Shown here in pieces: positions 1,085-6,837 of a stretch of 7,795 nucleotides of DNA; positions within the stretch are counted from its first letter, which is position 1, and each line of letters begins with the position of its first letter. Both the position numbers and the translations under genes were made by a program. Under the pieces are notes generated by a model. The model searched no databases and was not told the origin of the DNA. It saw nothing but the letters and a program-made list of their open reading frames with translations. This DNA comes from a virus (Duplodnaviria; Heunggongvirae; Uroviricota; Caudoviricetes), in IMG/VR virus record IMGVR_UViG_3300012275_000021; one strand, 5' to 3'.

Positions 1085-1510
1085 TCAATGTACTGCCACA
1101 GCATTTCCTGCCGGGCCACCACGGTTCATCTGATTGAAACCGGCGATTGCCACTGCGACAAAATCATCAGCGTCTCTCACCAATCGCTCCCGCGTCTCCA
1201 CCAGCTCCCGAAAATAAGCTGAACTGTGGCTGCGCATTCTGGCCACCAGCAAAGGTGGCATTGCCTTTTCGATCGCTGGTAACAACGCCTGAATTTTTTC
1301 AACTGCATCAGGGGTGTCTTTCTCTACCCAGCGGAAAATTTTCTGGGTATTGCGAGCCAAGGCTTCCGGATGGCTGTCGTCATACAGTTCAGGAAACGTC
1401 ATACCCAACTCAAAATAAGCCTGGGTTATTCCAGCTGCTGGAACTTTTTCGCCATCAGGACGCGCCCAGGCATTCATCGCCATGCGGATGTGTTCATGCT
1501 TGATTTTCAT
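1085..1510 (-). CDS. ydaT: YdaT-like protein (CII-position regulator of Rac-type prophages)
   Basis: 141-aa ORF beginning MKIKHEHI, which I recall as the YdaT N-terminus. GGAGG Shine-Dalgarno 5 nt upstream. Start codon overlaps the stop of the upstream cro-like gene as ATGA (1510-1507). Position is immediately downstream of the cro-like gene. Confidence 0.7.
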   Translation of the reverse strand: MKIKHEHIRMAMNAWARPDGEKVPAAGITQAYFELGMTFPELYDDSHPEALARNTQKIFRWVEKDTPDAVEKIQALLPAIEKAMPPLLVARMRSHSSAYFRELVETRERLVRDADDFVAVAIAGFNQMNRGGPAGNAVAVH

Positions 1511-1737
1511 GAATCCTCCCCTTGGTTAGAAGGCGGATTATGATCAGAACCGGGAATGACAACCGTCGGTATGTGTAACTCATATTTGAGCGCCCCGGCA
1601 GTGACTGCCTGAATTAGCAACGCCCATTTCCACGGAACCTCTTCCCCCCACATGCTGACTGTGGTTTTTGACGTTCCTAGAGCTGCGGCTGTTTTAACAA
1701 CTCCGCCAAAATAGCCTAATACTTCTGATTTTTTCAT
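1507..1737 (-). CDS. ydaS: YdaS-like Cro-type HTH regulator
   Basis: Track ORF 1507..1785 trimmed to the internal ATG at 1737-1735 (MKKSEVLGYFGGVVKTAAALGTSKTTVSMWG...), which has a GGAG Shine-Dalgarno 8 nt upstream; the longer form has none. Small HTH-like protein divergent from the repressor gene. Family name from memory. Confidence 0.75.
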   Translation of the reverse strand: MKKSEVLGYFGGVVKTAAALGTSKTTVSMWGEEVPWKWALLIQAVTAGALKYELHIPTVVIPGSDHNPPSNQGEDS

Positions 1738-1828
1738 GAGTCGCTCCATAAAACTGAACGCCAAAAGTTTAATAATCAAAACCAAAGAAAGTCAAGAAAC
1801 AAAACCATCTGTGTTTTAAAATCAAAAC
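1738..1828. promoter_or_regulatory. Divergent operator/promoter region between cro-like and repressor genes (PR/PRM analogue)
   Basis: A+T-rich 91-bp spacer. Perfect-arm palindrome TGTTTTaaaatcAAAACA at 1812-1829 abuts the repressor ATG. CAAAAC half-site-like motifs at 1777, 1800 and 1823 are spaced 23 bp apart. TAAAAT -10-like hexamer at 1817-1822 sits 6 bp before the repressor ATG. TTGACT on the minus strand (complement of 1790-1795) is a candidate -35 for the leftward promoter. Confidence 0.6.
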
Positions 1829-2467
1829 ATGAGCAAGCAAACAATATCTGAACGCATAACCCAACGTATGCATGCGCTAAACCTGAAAGGCAAAGACCTT
1901 GTCAATGCCACTGGCGCATCAAAAGGCTCCGTAAGTCAATGGATGAACGGTGGAGGAGCGCCGTCCTCGCGTTACATAAGTTCACTGGCAAAGATATTGA
2001 AAGTAAACGAAAATTGGCTTCTTAATGGAGGAGAGTTAAATACAGGTGATTCGCTTGATCTATCTTTACCGCCGATAAAAACGGTTCCGCTACTATCACT
2101 TCAGCAGGCAGCAAGCTGGAGTGATTATATGAAAAATTCCTCAATAACCTCTTGTGTGCAGCTTGTCGGAGAAATCCCGGCCAATACCTTTGCAGTTGTT
2201 CTAGAGAGTGACAGTATGTCAACATCTGGTGGGGGAGTTTCCATCCCAAATGGTTCAACAGTTTTTGTTGATCCCGATCGAACCGTACAACCAGGAAATA
2301 TTGTCCTTGCCTTACCCAAAGGGACCACAACACCTGTCATTCGTAAACTGGAGATAGAAGGGCCGGATATTCTTTTAGTCCCCACGAATCCTCGCTACCC
2401 TTCAATTATGCTGGATGATCTATCTTGCATATTGGGCGTATGCTTTAAAATTCAACAAGATATTTAA
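1829..2467 (+). CDS. CI-like prophage repressor, N-terminal HTH (XRE-type) plus C-terminal S24 LexA-like peptidase domain
   Basis: 212 aa. N-terminus has an HTH signature (LKGKDLVNATGASKGSVSQWMNG). C-terminus has S24 motifs: VVLESDSM (Ser motif), GSTVFVDPDRTVQPGNIVLA, and PVIRKLE (Lys motif). Divergent from the cro-like gene. No Shine-Dalgarno upstream of the ATG. Confidence 0.85.
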   Translation: MSKQTISERITQRMHALNLKGKDLVNATGASKGSVSQWMNGGGAPSSRYISSLAKILKVNENWLLNGGELNTGDSLDLSLPPIKTVPLLSLQQAASWSDYMKNSSITSCVQLVGEIPANTFAVVLESDSMSTSGGGVSIPNGSTVFVDPDRTVQPGNIVLALPKGTTTPVIRKLEIEGPDILLVPTNPRYPSIMLDDLSCILGVCFKIQQDI

Positions 2468-2533
2468 CCAACCTCATCTATTTGATTAACTGTATGCCAT
2501 CGTGGCGATGGCTTAACAGCTGCCTGCTTAAAA

Positions 2534-2580
2534 TGTTTTGATAAAAAAACATTGACCTGAAAAGTTCATTTTTCTAAACT
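2534..2580 (+). promoter_or_regulatory. Candidate early-left promoter with overlapping operator palindrome, driving the ydfA-dicF-dicB operon
   Basis: Second copy of TGTTTT-N6-AAAACA at 2534-2551, directly abutting a -35 TTGACC (2552-2557), a 17-bp spacer and a -10 TAAACT (2575-2580). Base positions read directly; promoter function is inferred. Confidence 0.5.
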
Positions 2581-2759: not shown

Positions 2760-2915
2760 ATGGATACTATCGATCTTGGCAACAACGAATCTCTGGTGTA
2801 CGGCGTGTTTCCCAACCAGGACGGCACATTCACCGCGATGACGTATACCAAAAGCAAAACGTTTAAAACCGAAAATGGTGCCCGTCGCTGGCTGGAAAGA
2901 AACTCAGGTGAGTAA
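2760..2915 (+). CDS. ydfA: YdfA/YdaF-family small protein (DUF1391-like), first gene of the dicB operon
   Basis: 51-aa product MDTIDLGNNESLVYGVFPNQDGTFTAMTYTKSKTFKTENGARRWLERNSGE, matching my memory of the K-12 YdfA/YdaF paralogues. GAGGT Shine-Dalgarno 5 nt upstream. Track ORF 2679..2915 is the same frame from an upstream ATG with a weaker ribosome-binding site. Confidence 0.7.
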   Translation: MDTIDLGNNESLVYGVFPNQDGTFTAMTYTKSKTFKTENGARRWLERNSGE

Positions 2916-2916
2916 T

Positions 2917-3045
2917 ATGGATTTCGACACAATCATGGAAAAGACTTACGAAGAATACTTCGAAGGCCTTGCCGAAGGCGAAGAAGCTCTCAGCTTCAGT
3001 GAGTTTAAACAGGCGCTTTCCAGCTCGGCAAAATCTAACGGCTGA
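2917..3045 (+). CDS. ydfB: YdfB/YdaG-family small protein (42 aa)
   Basis: MDFDTIMEKTYEEYFEGLAEGEEALSFSEFKQALSSSAKSNG. ATG lies 1 nt after the ydfA stop (taatATG), with AGGTGAG upstream. Not in the ORF track, presumably under its length cutoff. Confidence 0.65.
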   Translation: MDFDTIMEKTYEEYFEGLAEGEEALSFSEFKQALSSSAKSNG

Positions 3046-3074
3046 TAAGCGAAGCAGCACCGCGAGGAATCAGT

Positions 3075-3293
3075 ATGCAGAAACGAGAACCCGTCATCAT
3101 CGCGCCAGACTATACCGATGATGAACTTTATGAGTGGATGCGCCAGAAAATTAATGCAGCGCAGGATCTGAAATGGGCCAATGAAGCCAGGGCTAAGCAG
3201 GCTGAAAATCTGTCCGCTCTGGAGCAGGATATCACCAATCTGGAAAAAGCAGCGGCATTAAGCATTGCCAGAATGATTACATACCCGCGTTAA
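3075..3293 (+). CDS. ydfC: YdfC-like small protein (72 aa)
   Basis: Track ORF with a GAGGA Shine-Dalgarno. Sequence MQKREPVIIAPDYTDDELYEWMRQKINAAQDLKWANEARAKQAENLSALEQDITNLEKAAALSIARMITYPR matches my memory of Qin YdfC. Order ydfA-ydfB-ydfC-dicF-dicB matches the dicB operon. Confidence 0.7.
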   Translation: MQKREPVIIAPDYTDDELYEWMRQKINAAQDLKWANEARAKQAENLSALEQDITNLEKAAALSIARMITYPR

Positions 3294-3633
3294 TAGCTAA
3301 CCAACGAAGCTAAGGTTGGTAATTAAGGAGTTCTCCACGGGTGAGGTGGAGTGCGTGCGCCGGACACGGGTGAGCATCCGGCACTGACAGTTTACTGAAA
3401 GGATATTTCCATGAAAAGTCAGACCATAACGCGAAAGCGCACGGCGAGGTAGCTGGTTCATAGATAGCCTGTCGTTAAATTTTCGTCGACCGTGCGCTTC
3501 CGGTTGTGGCACTCCGCGAAATGGCGCGGCGGTAAGTATGGCGGGGTTATTCCTTCCCCGTTGAGGACACCGGGTTGTCAGGTTGACCATACGCTTAAGT
3601 GACAACCCCGCTGCAACGCCCTCTGTTATCAAT

Positions 3634-3691
3634 TTTCTGGTGACGTTTGGCGGTATCAGTTTTACTCCGTGACTGCTCTGCCGCCCTTTTT
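3634..3691 (+). ncRNA. dicF: DicF small regulatory RNA (antisense inhibitor of ftsZ translation) with 3' intrinsic-terminator-like stem and U tract
   Basis: tttctggtgacgtttggcggtatcagttttactccgtgactgctctgccgccctttt matches the DicF sequence as I remember it. GGCGG (3649-3653) pairs with CCGCC (3681-3685) and is followed by TTTTT (3687-3691). Sits between ydfC and dicB as in Qin. Exact 5' end is processing-defined and approximate here. Confidence 0.8.
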
Positions 3692-3860
3692 AAAGTGAAT
3701 TTTGTGATGCGGTGAATGCGGCTAAGCGCACGCGGAACAGTTAAAACCAAAAACAGTGTTATGGGTGGATTCTCTGTATCCGGCGTTAATTGTTAACTGG
3801 TTAACGTCACCTGGAGGCACCAGGCACCGCATCACAAAACTCATTGTTGAGGGCGCGATA

Positions 3861-4049
3861 ATGAAAACGTTATTACCAAACGTTAATACGTCTGAAGGTT
3901 GTTTTGAAATTGGTGTCACTATCAGTAATCCTGTATTTACTGAAGATGCCATTAACAAAAGAAAACACGAACGGGAGTTATTAAATAAAGTATGCATTGT
4001 TTCAATGCTGGCCCGTTTACGTCTGATGCCAAAAGGATGTGCACAATGA
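3861..4049 (+). CDS. dicB: DicB cell-division inhibitor (acts with MinC on FtsZ)
   Basis: 62-aa product MKTLLPNVNTSEGCFEIGVTISNPVFTEDAINKRKHERELLNKVCIVSMLARLRLMPKGCAQ, near-identical to K-12 DicB as I recall it. Internal start of track ORF 3756..4049 chosen for length match and a GAGGG Shine-Dalgarno. Confidence 0.85.
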   Translation: MKTLLPNVNTSEGCFEIGVTISNPVFTEDAINKRKHERELLNKVCIVSMLARLRLMPKGCAQ

Positions 4050-4237
4050 ATCCAGTATTTGCACTTATTCTGACGGTTTTTCTTGTTTCCGGAGAGCCAG
4101 TTGATATTGCAGTCAGTGTTCACAGAACAATGCAGGAATGTATGGCAGCAGCAACCGAACAGAAAATTCCAGGCAACTGTTATCCGGTCGATAAAGTTAT
4201 TCACCAGGATAATAACGAAATCCCGGCAGGATTTTAA
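4046..4237 (+). CDS. ydfD: YdfD-like small membrane protein (lysis-associated in Qin)
   Basis: 63-aa product MNPVFALILTVFLVSGEPVDIAVSVHRTMQECMAAATEQKIPGNCYPVDKVIHQDNNEIPAGF with a hydrophobic N-terminal segment. ATG 4046-4048 overlaps the dicB stop 4047-4049 (ATGA coupling). Internal start of track ORF 3992..4237. Confidence 0.75.
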   Translation: MNPVFALILTVFLVSGEPVDIAVSVHRTMQECMAAATEQKIPGNCYPVDKVIHQDNNEIPAGF

Positions 4238-4330: not shown

Positions 4331-6837
4331 ATGAGCACTGATAAAGAAGAATTTGCACTATATTGCGAAGCAAAAAATGACAAAGTAAGAAAACGCCTAG
4401 GAATTAAAGGTGGTTTTTACTGGACTACAGCAAAAAAATTATCTGTTGCAATCTCCCGCTGCATTACCGCAATGGATGACAACGATTATGATGAAGACGA
4501 CTTTAAAAAACCCGTCCGCGTCAATTTGCCCGTTGTTGACGACCTTCCGCCAGAAGGCGTGTTTGATACTGAATTCTGCAACCGCTATGAAAAAGGCGGG
4601 AAAGATGGCATCACAATGACATTTATCGGCCCTTCCCCCTCTGTTCAGGACAAACCAGCCAGCACTGACAATACCAACATCAACGGCGAAGACATGACTA
4701 AGATTGAGGAGAGCATGCTTCTGCCTGTCTCCGGTCAGGAACTGCCCATTCGTTGGCTTGCTCAACACGGCAGCGAAAAACCAGTAACGCACGTTTCACG
4801 CGACGAACTCCAGGCATTACACATTGCACGGGCTGAAGAACTACCGGCTGTTACTGCCCTGGCTATTTCGCATAAAACCAGTCTGCTCGACTCGCTGGAG
4901 ATTCGCGACCTCCACAAACTGGTTCGTGACACTGACAAAGTTTTCCCTAATCCTGGTAATTCAGACCTGGGACTAATAACTGCTTTTTTCGAAGCATACC
5001 TGGACGCTGACTACACTGATCGGGGTCTGCTGACAAAAGAGTGGATGAAAGGAAATCGTGTTTCACGCATCACCCGCACGGCTTCCGGTGCTAATGCTGG
5101 CGGTGGGAACAAAACCGATCGCAATCCGAATTTAGTACACACCCTCGACACACTGGATGTGGAGATTGCAGCAGCCACACTTCCGATGGATTTTAATATT
5201 TATGAAATTCCGGGCAGCGTTTATCGTCGCGCAAAAGAAGTAGTCCTGAACAAAGAAAGTCCGTTCAAAGAATGGTCCGCAGCACTTCGTGCAACCCCGG
5301 GTATTCTGGACTATTCCCGCGCCGCTATTTTTGCACTTATCCGAAGCGCACACCCTGAATTTTATCACTACCCGGGACGCCTTCAGGGGTATATCAACGC
5401 CTATTTGACGGAAACTGATCACGAGAACCCCAGCAAGGAAACTCTCACAGCTGCCCGGCATACGCCGGAAAAAGATATCCTGGAAAAAATTAACCGCGAG
5501 GTGGTTACTGAGCGTGAAACAGAAGAAGAAAAACCACAACCATCTGACGCAATGGCAGGTGAACAGGCAACAACTGAAACAATGGAACCGGATACAACTG
5601 AACATGGCCAGAACGCGCAGTCGCTGGATGCTCAGTCGCAGGTGAGTTCCGCTAACCAAGTAAAAGTCACCGCTGACGAAGTAAACAAAATTATGCAGGC
5701 AGCCAATATCAGCCAGCCTGACGCCGATAAGTTACTTGCTGTATCGCGTGGTGAATTTGTTGAGGGGATTAGCGACCCTAATGATCCGAAATGGGTCAAG
5801 GGGATCCAGACTCGCGATTCTGTGAACCAGAACCAGCATGAATCGGAACGGAACGACCAAAAAGCGGAACAAAACAGCCCAAATGCGTTACAAAACGAGC
5901 CAGAAACGAAACAATCCGAACCAGTAGCGCAACAGGAACCGGAAAAAGTCTGCACCGCCTGCGGTCAGAGCGGTGGCGGCAACTGCCCTGATTGTGGCGC
6001 GGTGATGGGCGACGCAACATACCAGGAAACATTCGATGAAGAGAATCAGGTTGAAGTTCAGGAAAATGATCCGGAGGAAATGGAAGGCGCTGAACATCCA
6101 CACAAGGAGAACCCTGGCGGCAATCAGCATCACGCCAGCGATAATAAAACTGGCGAGGCGACAGATCCCTTAATTAAGGTGAATGGTCATCATAAGCTCA
6201 CATCCACCAGCAGAGCGGGGATTCATCTGATGATCGACCTTGAAACCATGGGAAAAAATCCCGATGCCCCGATTATCTCAATAGGCGCAATATTTTTCGA
6301 TCCACAAACCGGAGATATGGGACCGGAATTTAGCAAGACCATCGATCTGGATACTGCTGGCGGAGTCATTGATCGTGACGTCATTAAATGGTGGCTGAAG
6401 CAATCACGTGAAGCGCAGTCTGCCATTATGACCGATGAAATCCCGTTAGATGATGCACTACTGCAATTGCGGGAATTTATCGACGAAAACTCCGGTGAAT
6501 TTTTTGTTCAGGTCTGGGGTAATGGGGCCAACTTCGACAACGTGATTTTACGCCGTTCATACGAACGACAGGGTATCCCCTGCCCATGGCGCTACTGNNN
6601 NNNNNNNNNNNNNNNNNNNNNNNNNNNNNNNNNNNNNNNNNNNNNNNNNNNNNNNNNNNNNNNNNNNNNNNNNNNNNACGCACAATCGTTGAGCTGGGGA
6701 AAGCCATAGACTTCGATGCCAGAACTGCTATCCCATTCGAAGGTGAGCGCCATAATGCACTTGATGACGCTCGTTACCAGGCAAAATACGTTTCAGCTAT
6801 CTGGCAAAAACTGATCCCGAGTCAGGCTGATTTTTAA
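4331..6837 (+). CDS. Large multidomain exonuclease: N-terminal region of the kind annotated exodeoxyribonuclease VIII/RecE-like in prophages, acidic linker, CxxC-x7-CxxC zinc ribbon, C-terminal DEDDh (DnaQ-like) 3'-5' exonuclease domain; interrupted by an 80-N run
   Basis: Track ORF 4331..6709 reads through the Ns in frame 2, and its tail after the Ns (AQSLSWGKP) is out of frame. The true continuation is frame 1 from 6679 to the stop at 6835-6837 (RTIVELGKAIDFDARTAIPFEGERHNALDDARYQAKYVSAIWQKLIPSQADF). DEDDh motifs: exo I MIDLET (~6236-6247), exo II WGNGANFD, exo III HNALDD after the gap. Zinc ribbon CTACGQSGGGNCPDCG at about 5951-5996. Acidic low-complexity linker at roughly aa 390-620. Confidence 0.75.
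6598..6677. other. Run of 80 ambiguous bases (assembly gap or masked segment) inside the exonuclease gene
   Basis: Direct reading: 80 consecutive n. Flanking reading frames differ (frame 2 before, frame 1 after), so the true missing length is not 80 if this is one continuous gene. Confidence 0.95.

Follow-up and report, generated by a model that had tools for sequence, protein, structure and literature searches.

Why the same 18-bp palindrome should occur twice in one phage region, once at the start of a cI-like repressor gene and once in front of a candidate promoter for the dicB operon, was the question raised by a 7,795-nucleotide stretch of the Caudoviricetes virus record IMGVR_UViG_3300012275_000021 from IMG/VR (this whole stretch is referred to below as the window). 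The window belonged to a lambdoid prophage of E. coli and represented its left arm. An earlier sequence-only reading had proposed that a single operator type controlled both the immunity switch and the dicF/dicB/ydfD cargo. Our comparison of related sequences made it very likely that the two palindromes were operators of a lambda-type immunity module, namely members of a five-site set shared by CI and Cro that would govern the switch as well as the dicF/dicB genes.

The exact pattern TGTTTTNNNNNNAAAACA (TGTTTT-N6-AAAACA) had only two matches in the window, at 1812-1829 (TGTTTTAAAATCAAAACA) and at 2534-2551 (TGTTTTGATAAAAAAACA), exactly where the sequence-only reading had placed it. The last A of the first palindrome, at 1829, was the A of the cI ATG, and the second palindrome ran straight into TTGACC (2552-2557), the -35 hexamer of the promoter-like site TTGACC-17-TAAACT. 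The earlier judgement that two such copies were improbable by chance was borne out as well: the expected count was 0.01, and two or more matches were present in 0 of 200 dinucleotide shuffles. The shorter core GTTT-N8-AAAC occurred three times in the window, each time inside one of the two intergenic regions.

Variants of the region were recovered by protein and locus searches. The close variants (L003-L006) had CI proteins that were 84-85% identical, and the distant lineages, with CI 43-53% identical, came from Symbiopectobacterium (L007), Regiella (L088), Phlomobacter (L089), Arsenophonus (L090), and two metagenome contigs (L091 and L092); a search of viral contigs with the Symbiopectobacterium CI gave no matches. 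Every recovered variant had a P22_Cro-family gene divergent from cI, and in all nine lineages the last base of an 18-bp TGTTTa-N6-tAAACA site was the A that opened the cI ATG. The homologues also had a half-site five bases upstream of this cI-start site and a full site over the -10 of the promoter PR, with the 5-bp spacers and the 23-bp register maintained. Downstream of cI, they carried TTGAC(A/C/T) followed after 4-5 nucleotides by TGTTTTGnTAnnTAAACT, whose last six bases formed the -10 of the promoter PL, and an additional palindrome was located 0-5 bp upstream of the PL -35. The flanking genes varied among the lineages: one neighbour encoded either YdaT or a protein of the CP76 family, and at the opposite end there was either the dicB operon or an N-like gene. 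Since the neighbouring genes were different, the motif travelled together with the CI/Cro pair.

A position weight matrix was trained on the six distant lineages only and then run on the window. It returned exactly four matches of at least 8 bits in 7.8 kb, at 2534 (23.4 bits), 1812 (22.6 bits), 1766 (17.2 bits), and 2563 (16.8 bits). Extending the motif search to a 40-kb record containing the whole phage and its host flank left these four among the five best matches, the comparable extra one being at 22525 (14.7 bits). As a control for local composition, the two A+T-rich intergenic regions alone were shuffled 5000 times with dinucleotides preserved. Neither palindrome was equalled in matrix score by any of these shuffles, and only 6-8 of the 5000 reached the scores of the two weaker sites (16.8 bits).

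Together with a half-site, the four matches formed a map of five candidate sites arranged around three promoter-like elements. The genes cro (minus strand) and cI (plus strand) diverged with 91 bp between them. This interval contained a PR-like promoter, TTGACT-18-TAAACT, at 1766-1795 on the minus strand, pointing toward cro, ydaT, and the replication genes. Site a (AGTTTAATAATCAAAACC, 1766-1783), a candidate operator in the OR1-like position that also emerged from repeat finding, had a left half that was the reverse complement of the PR -10 TAAACT, and it was 46 bp from site c. Site b (AAGTCAAGAAACAAAACC, 1789-1806) occupied the OR2-like position, and its left half carried the PR -35 (TTGACT on the minus strand). 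Only its right half, AAAAC, fitted the motif. Site b was rejected as a full operator since it scored -4.4 bits on the symmetric matrix, and it was retained as a half-site in the 23-bp register. Site c (TGTTTTAAAATCAAAACA, 1812-1829), the OR3-like candidate operator with perfect arms, covered the TAAAAT hexamer (1817-1822) of a plus-strand PRM-like element (1817-1829), in which six nucleotides separated this -10 from A1829. Thus, the right operator had the layout a, 5 bp, b, 5 bp, c, with sites a and c overlapping -10 hexamers. The sequence-only reading had listed CAAAAC at 1777-1782 and at 1800-1805 as possible operator subsites. Both were indeed present; the first turned out to be the right half of the full palindrome a, and the second belonged only to half-site b and did not make a full operator.

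The same operator type was found at the PL-equivalent promoter beyond cI. Namely, two sites flanked or overlapped the plus-strand PL-like promoter TTGACC-17-TAAACT (2552-2580), which was conserved in the nine lineages and pointed toward ydfA-ydfB-ydfC-dicF-dicB-ydfD and onward. OL2 (TGTTTTGATAAAAAAACA, 2534-2551), with perfect arms, abutted the PL -35 from upstream. OL1 (AGTTCATTTTTCTAAACT, 2563-2580), a more degenerate candidate operator in the PL spacer, ended with six nucleotides that were the PL -10, and repeat finding showed its resemblance to site a. It was probably OL1 that directly occluded RNA polymerase. Flanking positions in a 23-bp register with OL2 and OL1, to the left as well as to the right, contained no further sites. 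Thus, instead of two sites with stray half-sites, as initially described, the set comprised five, and OL1, which overlapped the PL -10, had been missed. The consensus was the 18-bp TGTTTw-N6-wAAACA with the core GTTT-N8-AAAC.

The proteins expected to read these sites were encoded on both sides of the right operator. The 212-aa CI-like repressor (1829-2467, plus strand) combined a helix-turn-helix (HTH_3) domain with a Peptidase_S24 domain, and the 76-aa Cro-like protein (1507-1737, minus strand) belonged to the Pfam family P22_Cro (PF14549; 57.8 bits, gathering cutoff 30.2) and matched P22 Cro in PDB entry 1rzs (E = 2e-8). The earlier label of this protein as YdaS-like needed correction, as the P22_Cro-family protein encoded here was unrelated to the YdaS of prophage CP-933P. 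The recognition helices of the two regulators were nearly identical, ASKGSVSQW (SKGSVSQW) in CI and SKTTVSMW in Cro. In the distant lineages, the CI residues A30, S31, K32, G33, V35, S36, Q37, and W38 and the Cro residues S23, K24, T26, V27, S28, and W30 were invariant. The repressor and Cro pairs of 434 and P22 share their operators. CI was only 24-30% identical to the repressors of lambda, 434, P22, and phage 21. Among copies of the prophage, the overlap between the Cro C-terminus and ydaT varied (1507-1520 here, 5995-6011 in L001): some records lacked one base and had an 80-aa protein annotated as 'DicC' with a 17-nt overlap, and the window had 76 aa with a 4-nt overlap.

Relatives with other recognition helices made it possible to see whether operators and regulators changed together. 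ZF40, a Klebsiella phage, and an E. coli phage had Cro proteins that were 53-56% identical, with the helices SRVxxTKW in CI and HPAVCRW in Cro, and they carried GTAAC/GTTAC-type palindromes at the equivalent positions. The architecture was preserved in these phages: one palindrome abutted an ATG where cI begins, another site was located in the spacer of PL, and one more preceded the PL -35. CP-933P, with unrelated regulators, had GTTT-N10-AAAC sites at PR and PL, and the window contained the GTTT-N8-AAAC form only. According to these comparisons, a change in the DNA-reading parts of the regulators was always accompanied by a change in the sequence at the fixed positions, which did not change otherwise, so operator sequence co-varied with the recognition helices. 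The proposal of one operator type at the cI/cro switch and at the dicF/dicB/ydfD promoter was thus supported by the comparative evidence, with the motif at the same places in distant homologues that had the same helices.

It could be argued that the palindromes were merely by-products of A+T-rich promoter architecture, an UP-element-like tract at one place and a PRM -10 with its discriminator at the other, and were not specific operators. The 2534-2551 palindrome was indeed located at about -38 to -55 of PL, in the UP-element zone, both regions were A+T-rich, and the overlap with promoters added to the conservation. However, the local-composition shuffles argued against this explanation, the G and C of the core were the conserved positions, which A/T richness did not explain, and unrelated G+C-containing palindromes appeared when the helices changed although the promoter layout did not. 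We therefore regarded this explanation as very unlikely. Within E. coli, 86 near-identical copies of the cassette were compared. Only 1 of 36 core positions was variable in them, whereas outside the operators 56 of 128 intergenic positions were (Fisher p = 7e-7), and a part of this constraint must stem from the overlapping promoter hexamers. The core change was C to T at 2567, toward the consensus, so that OL1 had either TGTTC or TGTTT, and the OL2 arms were invariant. Variation clustered in the cro leader, in the b-c spacer (1807-1810), in the 5-nt gap that separated OL1 from the PL -35, and at positions 6 and 13, a symmetric pair within the sites.

A different binding factor, either the CII-like YdaT or a host nucleoid protein such as IHF, Fis, or H-NS, was considered highly improbable. 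The YdaT of Rac does bind within the racR-ydaS intergenic region and recognises an inverted repeat of the 6-N6-6 form. However, its known box, TTGATT-N6-AATCAA, was unlike the motif, and the window had a separate box-like repeat at 1500-1517. Moreover, the CP-933P YdaT does not bind the cI-cro intergenic region of CP-933P, where the motif was different despite a YdaT that was 84% identical to the one encoded here. The motif was also maintained in lineages without a cro-adjacent YdaT, namely L088, which had a CP76-family protein, and L089 and L090, which had none. The box-like repeat itself (TTGATTTTCATGAATCCT, 1500-1517) was located over the ydaT start codon, which was in the spacer as in Rac and CP-933P, and it had 10 of 12 matches to TTGATT-N6-AATCAA, a sequence footprinted in both of those prophages. 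It was the sole match with no more than two mismatches in the window, although such a match was not significant alone (98 of 200 shuffles). A PRE-like promoter reading in the direction of cI could have its -10 in a TATGAT at approximately 1540-1545.

The idea that the palindromes functioned at the RNA level, with one hairpin terminating or stabilising the transcript after cI and the other influencing translation at the cI start, was rejected on folding energies and context, and we consider it almost certainly wrong. Both palindromes could fold into A-U hairpins of 7-8 bp. However, these had only -3.6 and -5.7 kcal/mol with no U-tract after them, sites a and OL1 shared the motif with poorer self-complementarity, and site c would not be transcribed from PRM if cI were leaderless. 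If cI has a 3' structure, the G+C-rich hairpin at 2496-2512 (-13.1 kcal/mol) suited this role better. This hairpin, GCCATCG-TGG-CGATGGC, was located between the cI stop and OL2, its energy was calculated with flanks, and it may represent the 3' structure of the cI transcript. In the 84-85% identical variants its stem was preserved and its loop varied, and no T-run followed. The window base 2506 was C, and 85 of 86 other copies had T.

The position of site c on the cI start codon also bore on how this gene was expressed. The sequence upstream consisted of TAAAAT, six bases, and the ATG, with no Shine-Dalgarno sequence. The likeliest reading was a leaderless cI transcribed from the PRM embedded in site c, since the geometry of the -10 and the ATG resembled that of CP-933P, a Shine-Dalgarno sequence was missing, CI residues 1-13 could be aligned to the first helix of the repressors of 434 and P22, and the open reading frame was intact. 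Public annotations placed the start at M14 (ON470612; GenBank) or at M101 (RefSeq O157:H7, a 112-aa 'LexA family protein'). The lack of a Shine-Dalgarno sequence would explain why the start was mis-called, and the short annotations were probably start-codon artefacts. A truncated cI in O157:H7, as implied by the RefSeq record with the C-terminal 112 aa only, was rejected, since the 212-aa open reading frame was intact in all 82 near-identical copies checked.

The sites, their placement relative to the promoter-like hexamers, how well they were conserved, and how they co-varied with the regulators were observed directly. From these observations we infer the most likely working scheme, including the assignment of proteins to sites and the order of their binding, the points where transcription would start, any cooperativity or looping, and whether the SOS response would induce the switch. 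In this scheme, CI (212 aa) and Cro (76 aa) would read the same half-site as dimers, via their near-identical recognition helices. The predicted transcript starts were A1829 (plus strand) for cI, approximately 1759 (minus strand) for cro, and approximately 2587 (plus strand) for the dicB operon. In a lysogen, CI would occupy site a (with or without b) together with OL1 and OL2, occluding PR and PL. This would silence cro, ydaT, and the replication genes on one side and the operon ydfABC-dicF-dicB-ydfD-recE-xis-int on the other. At site c, CI would exert negative autoregulation, and Cro would turn cI off there after induction. The YdaT box suggested that the CII-like YdaT might activate a PRE-type promoter toward cI. 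RecA-dependent induction of CI was plausible, as judged from its sequence. The S129 and K173 of its S24 dyad aligned with S149 and K192 of lambda, and the residues aligned to the QA-G cleavage site of lambda were QA-A rather than the canonical Ala-Gly or Cys-Gly; Q93-A94-A95 (window 2105-2113) aligned with Ala111-Gly112 of lambda. Among the homologues, the second (P1') residue was A, E, G, or V, whereas the Ser/Lys dyad was conserved.

Several points weighed against a lambda-type operator set that works in this way. A full-text search of the available literature for the four operator sequences returned no paper. Site b failed the symmetric matrix, as given above. The distance between OL2 and OL1 was 29 bp here and varied among the homologues, versus a fixed 22-23 bp at the right operator, which argued against lambda-like pairwise cooperativity at the left operator. 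Of the two best sites, one was located at PRM and the other ahead of the PL -35, and neither covered the -10 hexamers of PR and PL. Since the site strengths reversed the affinity order of lambda, the order of occupancy was uncertain. The putative Ala-Ala cleavage site meant that SOS inducibility was not assured, and the overlapping promoter hexamers could account for a part of the conservation.

A rival reading was a split of the operators, in which c and OL2 were essentially Cro sites or long-range looping anchors and CI acted mainly via the promoter-occluding sites a and OL1 or via another determinant. If so, the 'single operator type' of the earlier reading would be only half right. The perfect sites were located where a lysogenic repressor would turn off its own gene (c) or at a spot where it would leave the core promoter free (OL2), the distance from OL2 to the -35 varied between 0 and 5 bp, and in CP-933P YdaS takes PRM first, with PaaR2 repressing PR more strongly (PMC8630535). 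However, the recognition helices of CI and Cro were nearly identical, and the fit of OL1 and of site a to the consensus was as good as that of c among the distant lineages. Moreover, in every characterised lambdoid system known to us (lambda, 434, and P22) both proteins bind all operators, which spoke against such a split. We considered it unlikely, and such an unequal division of the sites between CI and Cro was the one live sub-variant of the shared-operator reading. The operators shared by CI and Cro were thus preferred as the explanation of the set.

An experimental precedent for this arrangement was the immunity region of CP-933P, a cryptic prophage of E. coli O157:H7 with the promoters PRM933P, PR933P, PL933P, and PRE933P. 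In that prophage, the starts of PR and PRM were mapped by rapid amplification of 5' cDNA ends, paaR2 was leaderless with its transcript starting at the ATG, and the DNase I footprints of PaaR2 and YdaS covered equally spaced 18-bp palindromes (PMC8630535). YdaS bound PRM first, PaaR2 repressed PR more strongly, and reporters for PR, PRM, and PL were repressed, the PL fusion approximately 100-fold by either protein (PMC8630535). The window resembled CP-933P in its YdaT (84% identical), in the homologous PL leader and dicB operon, and in the short intergenic region (91 bp here and 97 bp there). PR and PL contained the same TTGACT and TAAACT hexamers, the -10 hexamers were overlaid by 18-bp palindromes whose core was GTTT/AAAC, operators occurred at PL too, and the TAAAAT, six bases, and ATG of the window corresponded to GATAAT, six bases, and ATG in CP-933P. 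Nevertheless, CI and Cro were rejected as homologues of PaaR2 and YdaS, as BLASTP gave no alignment for either pair. PaaR2 had 123 aa without an S24 domain and was followed by the paaA2-parE2 toxin-antitoxin pair. Its half-site was GTTTAGTAA, with GTTT-N10-AAAC in place of N8, the right operator comprised four palindromes, and the PRM-proximal site ended 11 bp before the ATG instead of on it.

The likeness to lambda, 434, and P22 included the divergent cI and cro genes, a right operator of three positions with approximately 23-bp spacing, of which the middle one was only a half-site here, O1-type sites in the PR/PL spacer and -10, and O2-type sites at or beside the -35. As in lambda, cI appeared to be leaderless, and CI consisted of a helix-turn-helix and an S24 domain with the Ser/Lys dyad. 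Cro was 47% identical to P22 Cro, which also uses 18-bp operators. The differences were the low CI identity (24-30%), another operator sequence, only two OL sites detected, best sites in the OR3-like and OL2-like positions, the Ala-Ala cleavage site, and dicF/dicB in a PL operon without an N gene.

The Qin prophage of K-12 resembled the window in having a repressor gene directly upstream of the ydfABC-dicF-dicB-ydfD promoter together with a divergent cro-like gene, and lambda-like operators had been proposed at both of its promoters (PMC10448788, PMC3441716). However, DicA has 135 aa and no S24 domain, unlike the full-length CI-type repressor of 212 aa found here, and the validated operator Oc, TTGTTAGTCATAACTAACAA, was unlike the present motif (PMC10448788, PMC3441716). 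DicA was not inducible by RecA or mitomycin and was relieved by the antirepressor Rem (PMC10448788, PMC3441716). Since the repressor of the window was different and of the S24 type, the work on K-12 DicA cannot be transferred to these strains.

Considering the low identity to known repressors (24-30%) and the lack of a literature match, the specificity of TGTTTw-N6-wAAACA with SKxxVSxW helices appeared to be uncharacterised. Otherwise, this was the operator system expected of a lambdoid immunity region, ordinary in design and new in sequence specificity only; conceptually, it added another lambdoid immunity specificity and no new principle. A more speculative interpretation was that prophages from E. 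coli to the symbionts Arsenophonus, Regiella, Phlomobacter, and Symbiopectobacterium formed one cross-repressing immunity group in which the E. coli switch was rewired. The conserved operator type and helices, despite CI identities of 43-53%, suggested such a cross-genus group. The rewired switch could involve tight CI autorepression and/or a 0.7-kb loop between OL2 and ORc, since in the E. coli lineage OL1 had degenerated and the strongest sites were the one at PRM and the one in front of the PL -35. We find this joint interpretation rather doubtful. If it were true, dicF/dicB would be under a cleavable, possibly SOS-responsive repressor in approximately one-fifth of E. coli strains, including O157:H7, unlike under K-12 DicA. 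The products of dicF and dicB block cell division, alter phage susceptibility, and affect virulence gene expression in enterohaemorrhagic E. coli. A common cassette directly upstream of this operon had thus a practical relevance. The operator consensus and the site map provided concrete targets for mutagenesis, reporter assays, and chromatin immunoprecipitation, and they also explained the mis-called cI start.

The cassette was indeed common. The interval 1500-2700 was present at 98% identity or higher in 1042 of 5426 complete E. coli genomes (approximately 19%), O157:H7 among them, and in three phage records at the same threshold. Homology to many other prophages resumed at approximately 2594, just downstream of the candidate PL, which indicated that the immunity cassette ended there, as expected for lambdoid mosaics. 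Beyond this point, the PL leader (2600-2695 in the window, 2627-2727 in L095, 2325-2420 in L007, and also present in L089-L092) was strongly conserved in primary sequence (…CGAGTTAC…TAAGTAGCCAGCCCGAGGCGTAAGAACATGACGGCAGG…), both across unrelated immunity cassettes such as that of CP-933P and in relatives with CI of approximately 45% identity, and megablast found it in approximately 3700 E. coli genomes. In the N-carrying relatives, it preceded boxA/boxB-like nutL sequences. The leader had no Rfam match, and RNAalifold gave only weak hairpins with few compensatory pairs.

On the plus strand, the cargo genes ydfA (DUF1391), ydfB, ydfC, the DicF RNA, dicB, and ydfD extended over 2760-4237, with DicF at 3635-3686 (Rfam 76.7 bits), dicB at 3861-4049, and ydfD at 4046-4237. 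The Rfam scan, run both with the gathering cutoff and with E values of up to 1, returned DicF only and had no match in 1480-2800. Genes for a RecE-like exonuclease, xis, and int followed beyond ydfD on the same strand. The recE-like gene encoded Exonuc_VIII and Rv2179c-like 3'-5' exoribonuclease domains, and the run of 80 N at 6598-6677 within it was an assembly or masking gap, not biology. On the minus strand, ydaT (1085-1510; Pfam YdaT_toxin) encoded a protein 84% identical to the structurally characterised YdaT of CP-933P, and a replication-protein gene was located beyond it. This last gene contained clustered short direct repeats at 540-640 and 840-890 (ATCTGTATCTTT; CGTGAC/GTGACA units), which resembled the lambda-O-type iterons of an origin.

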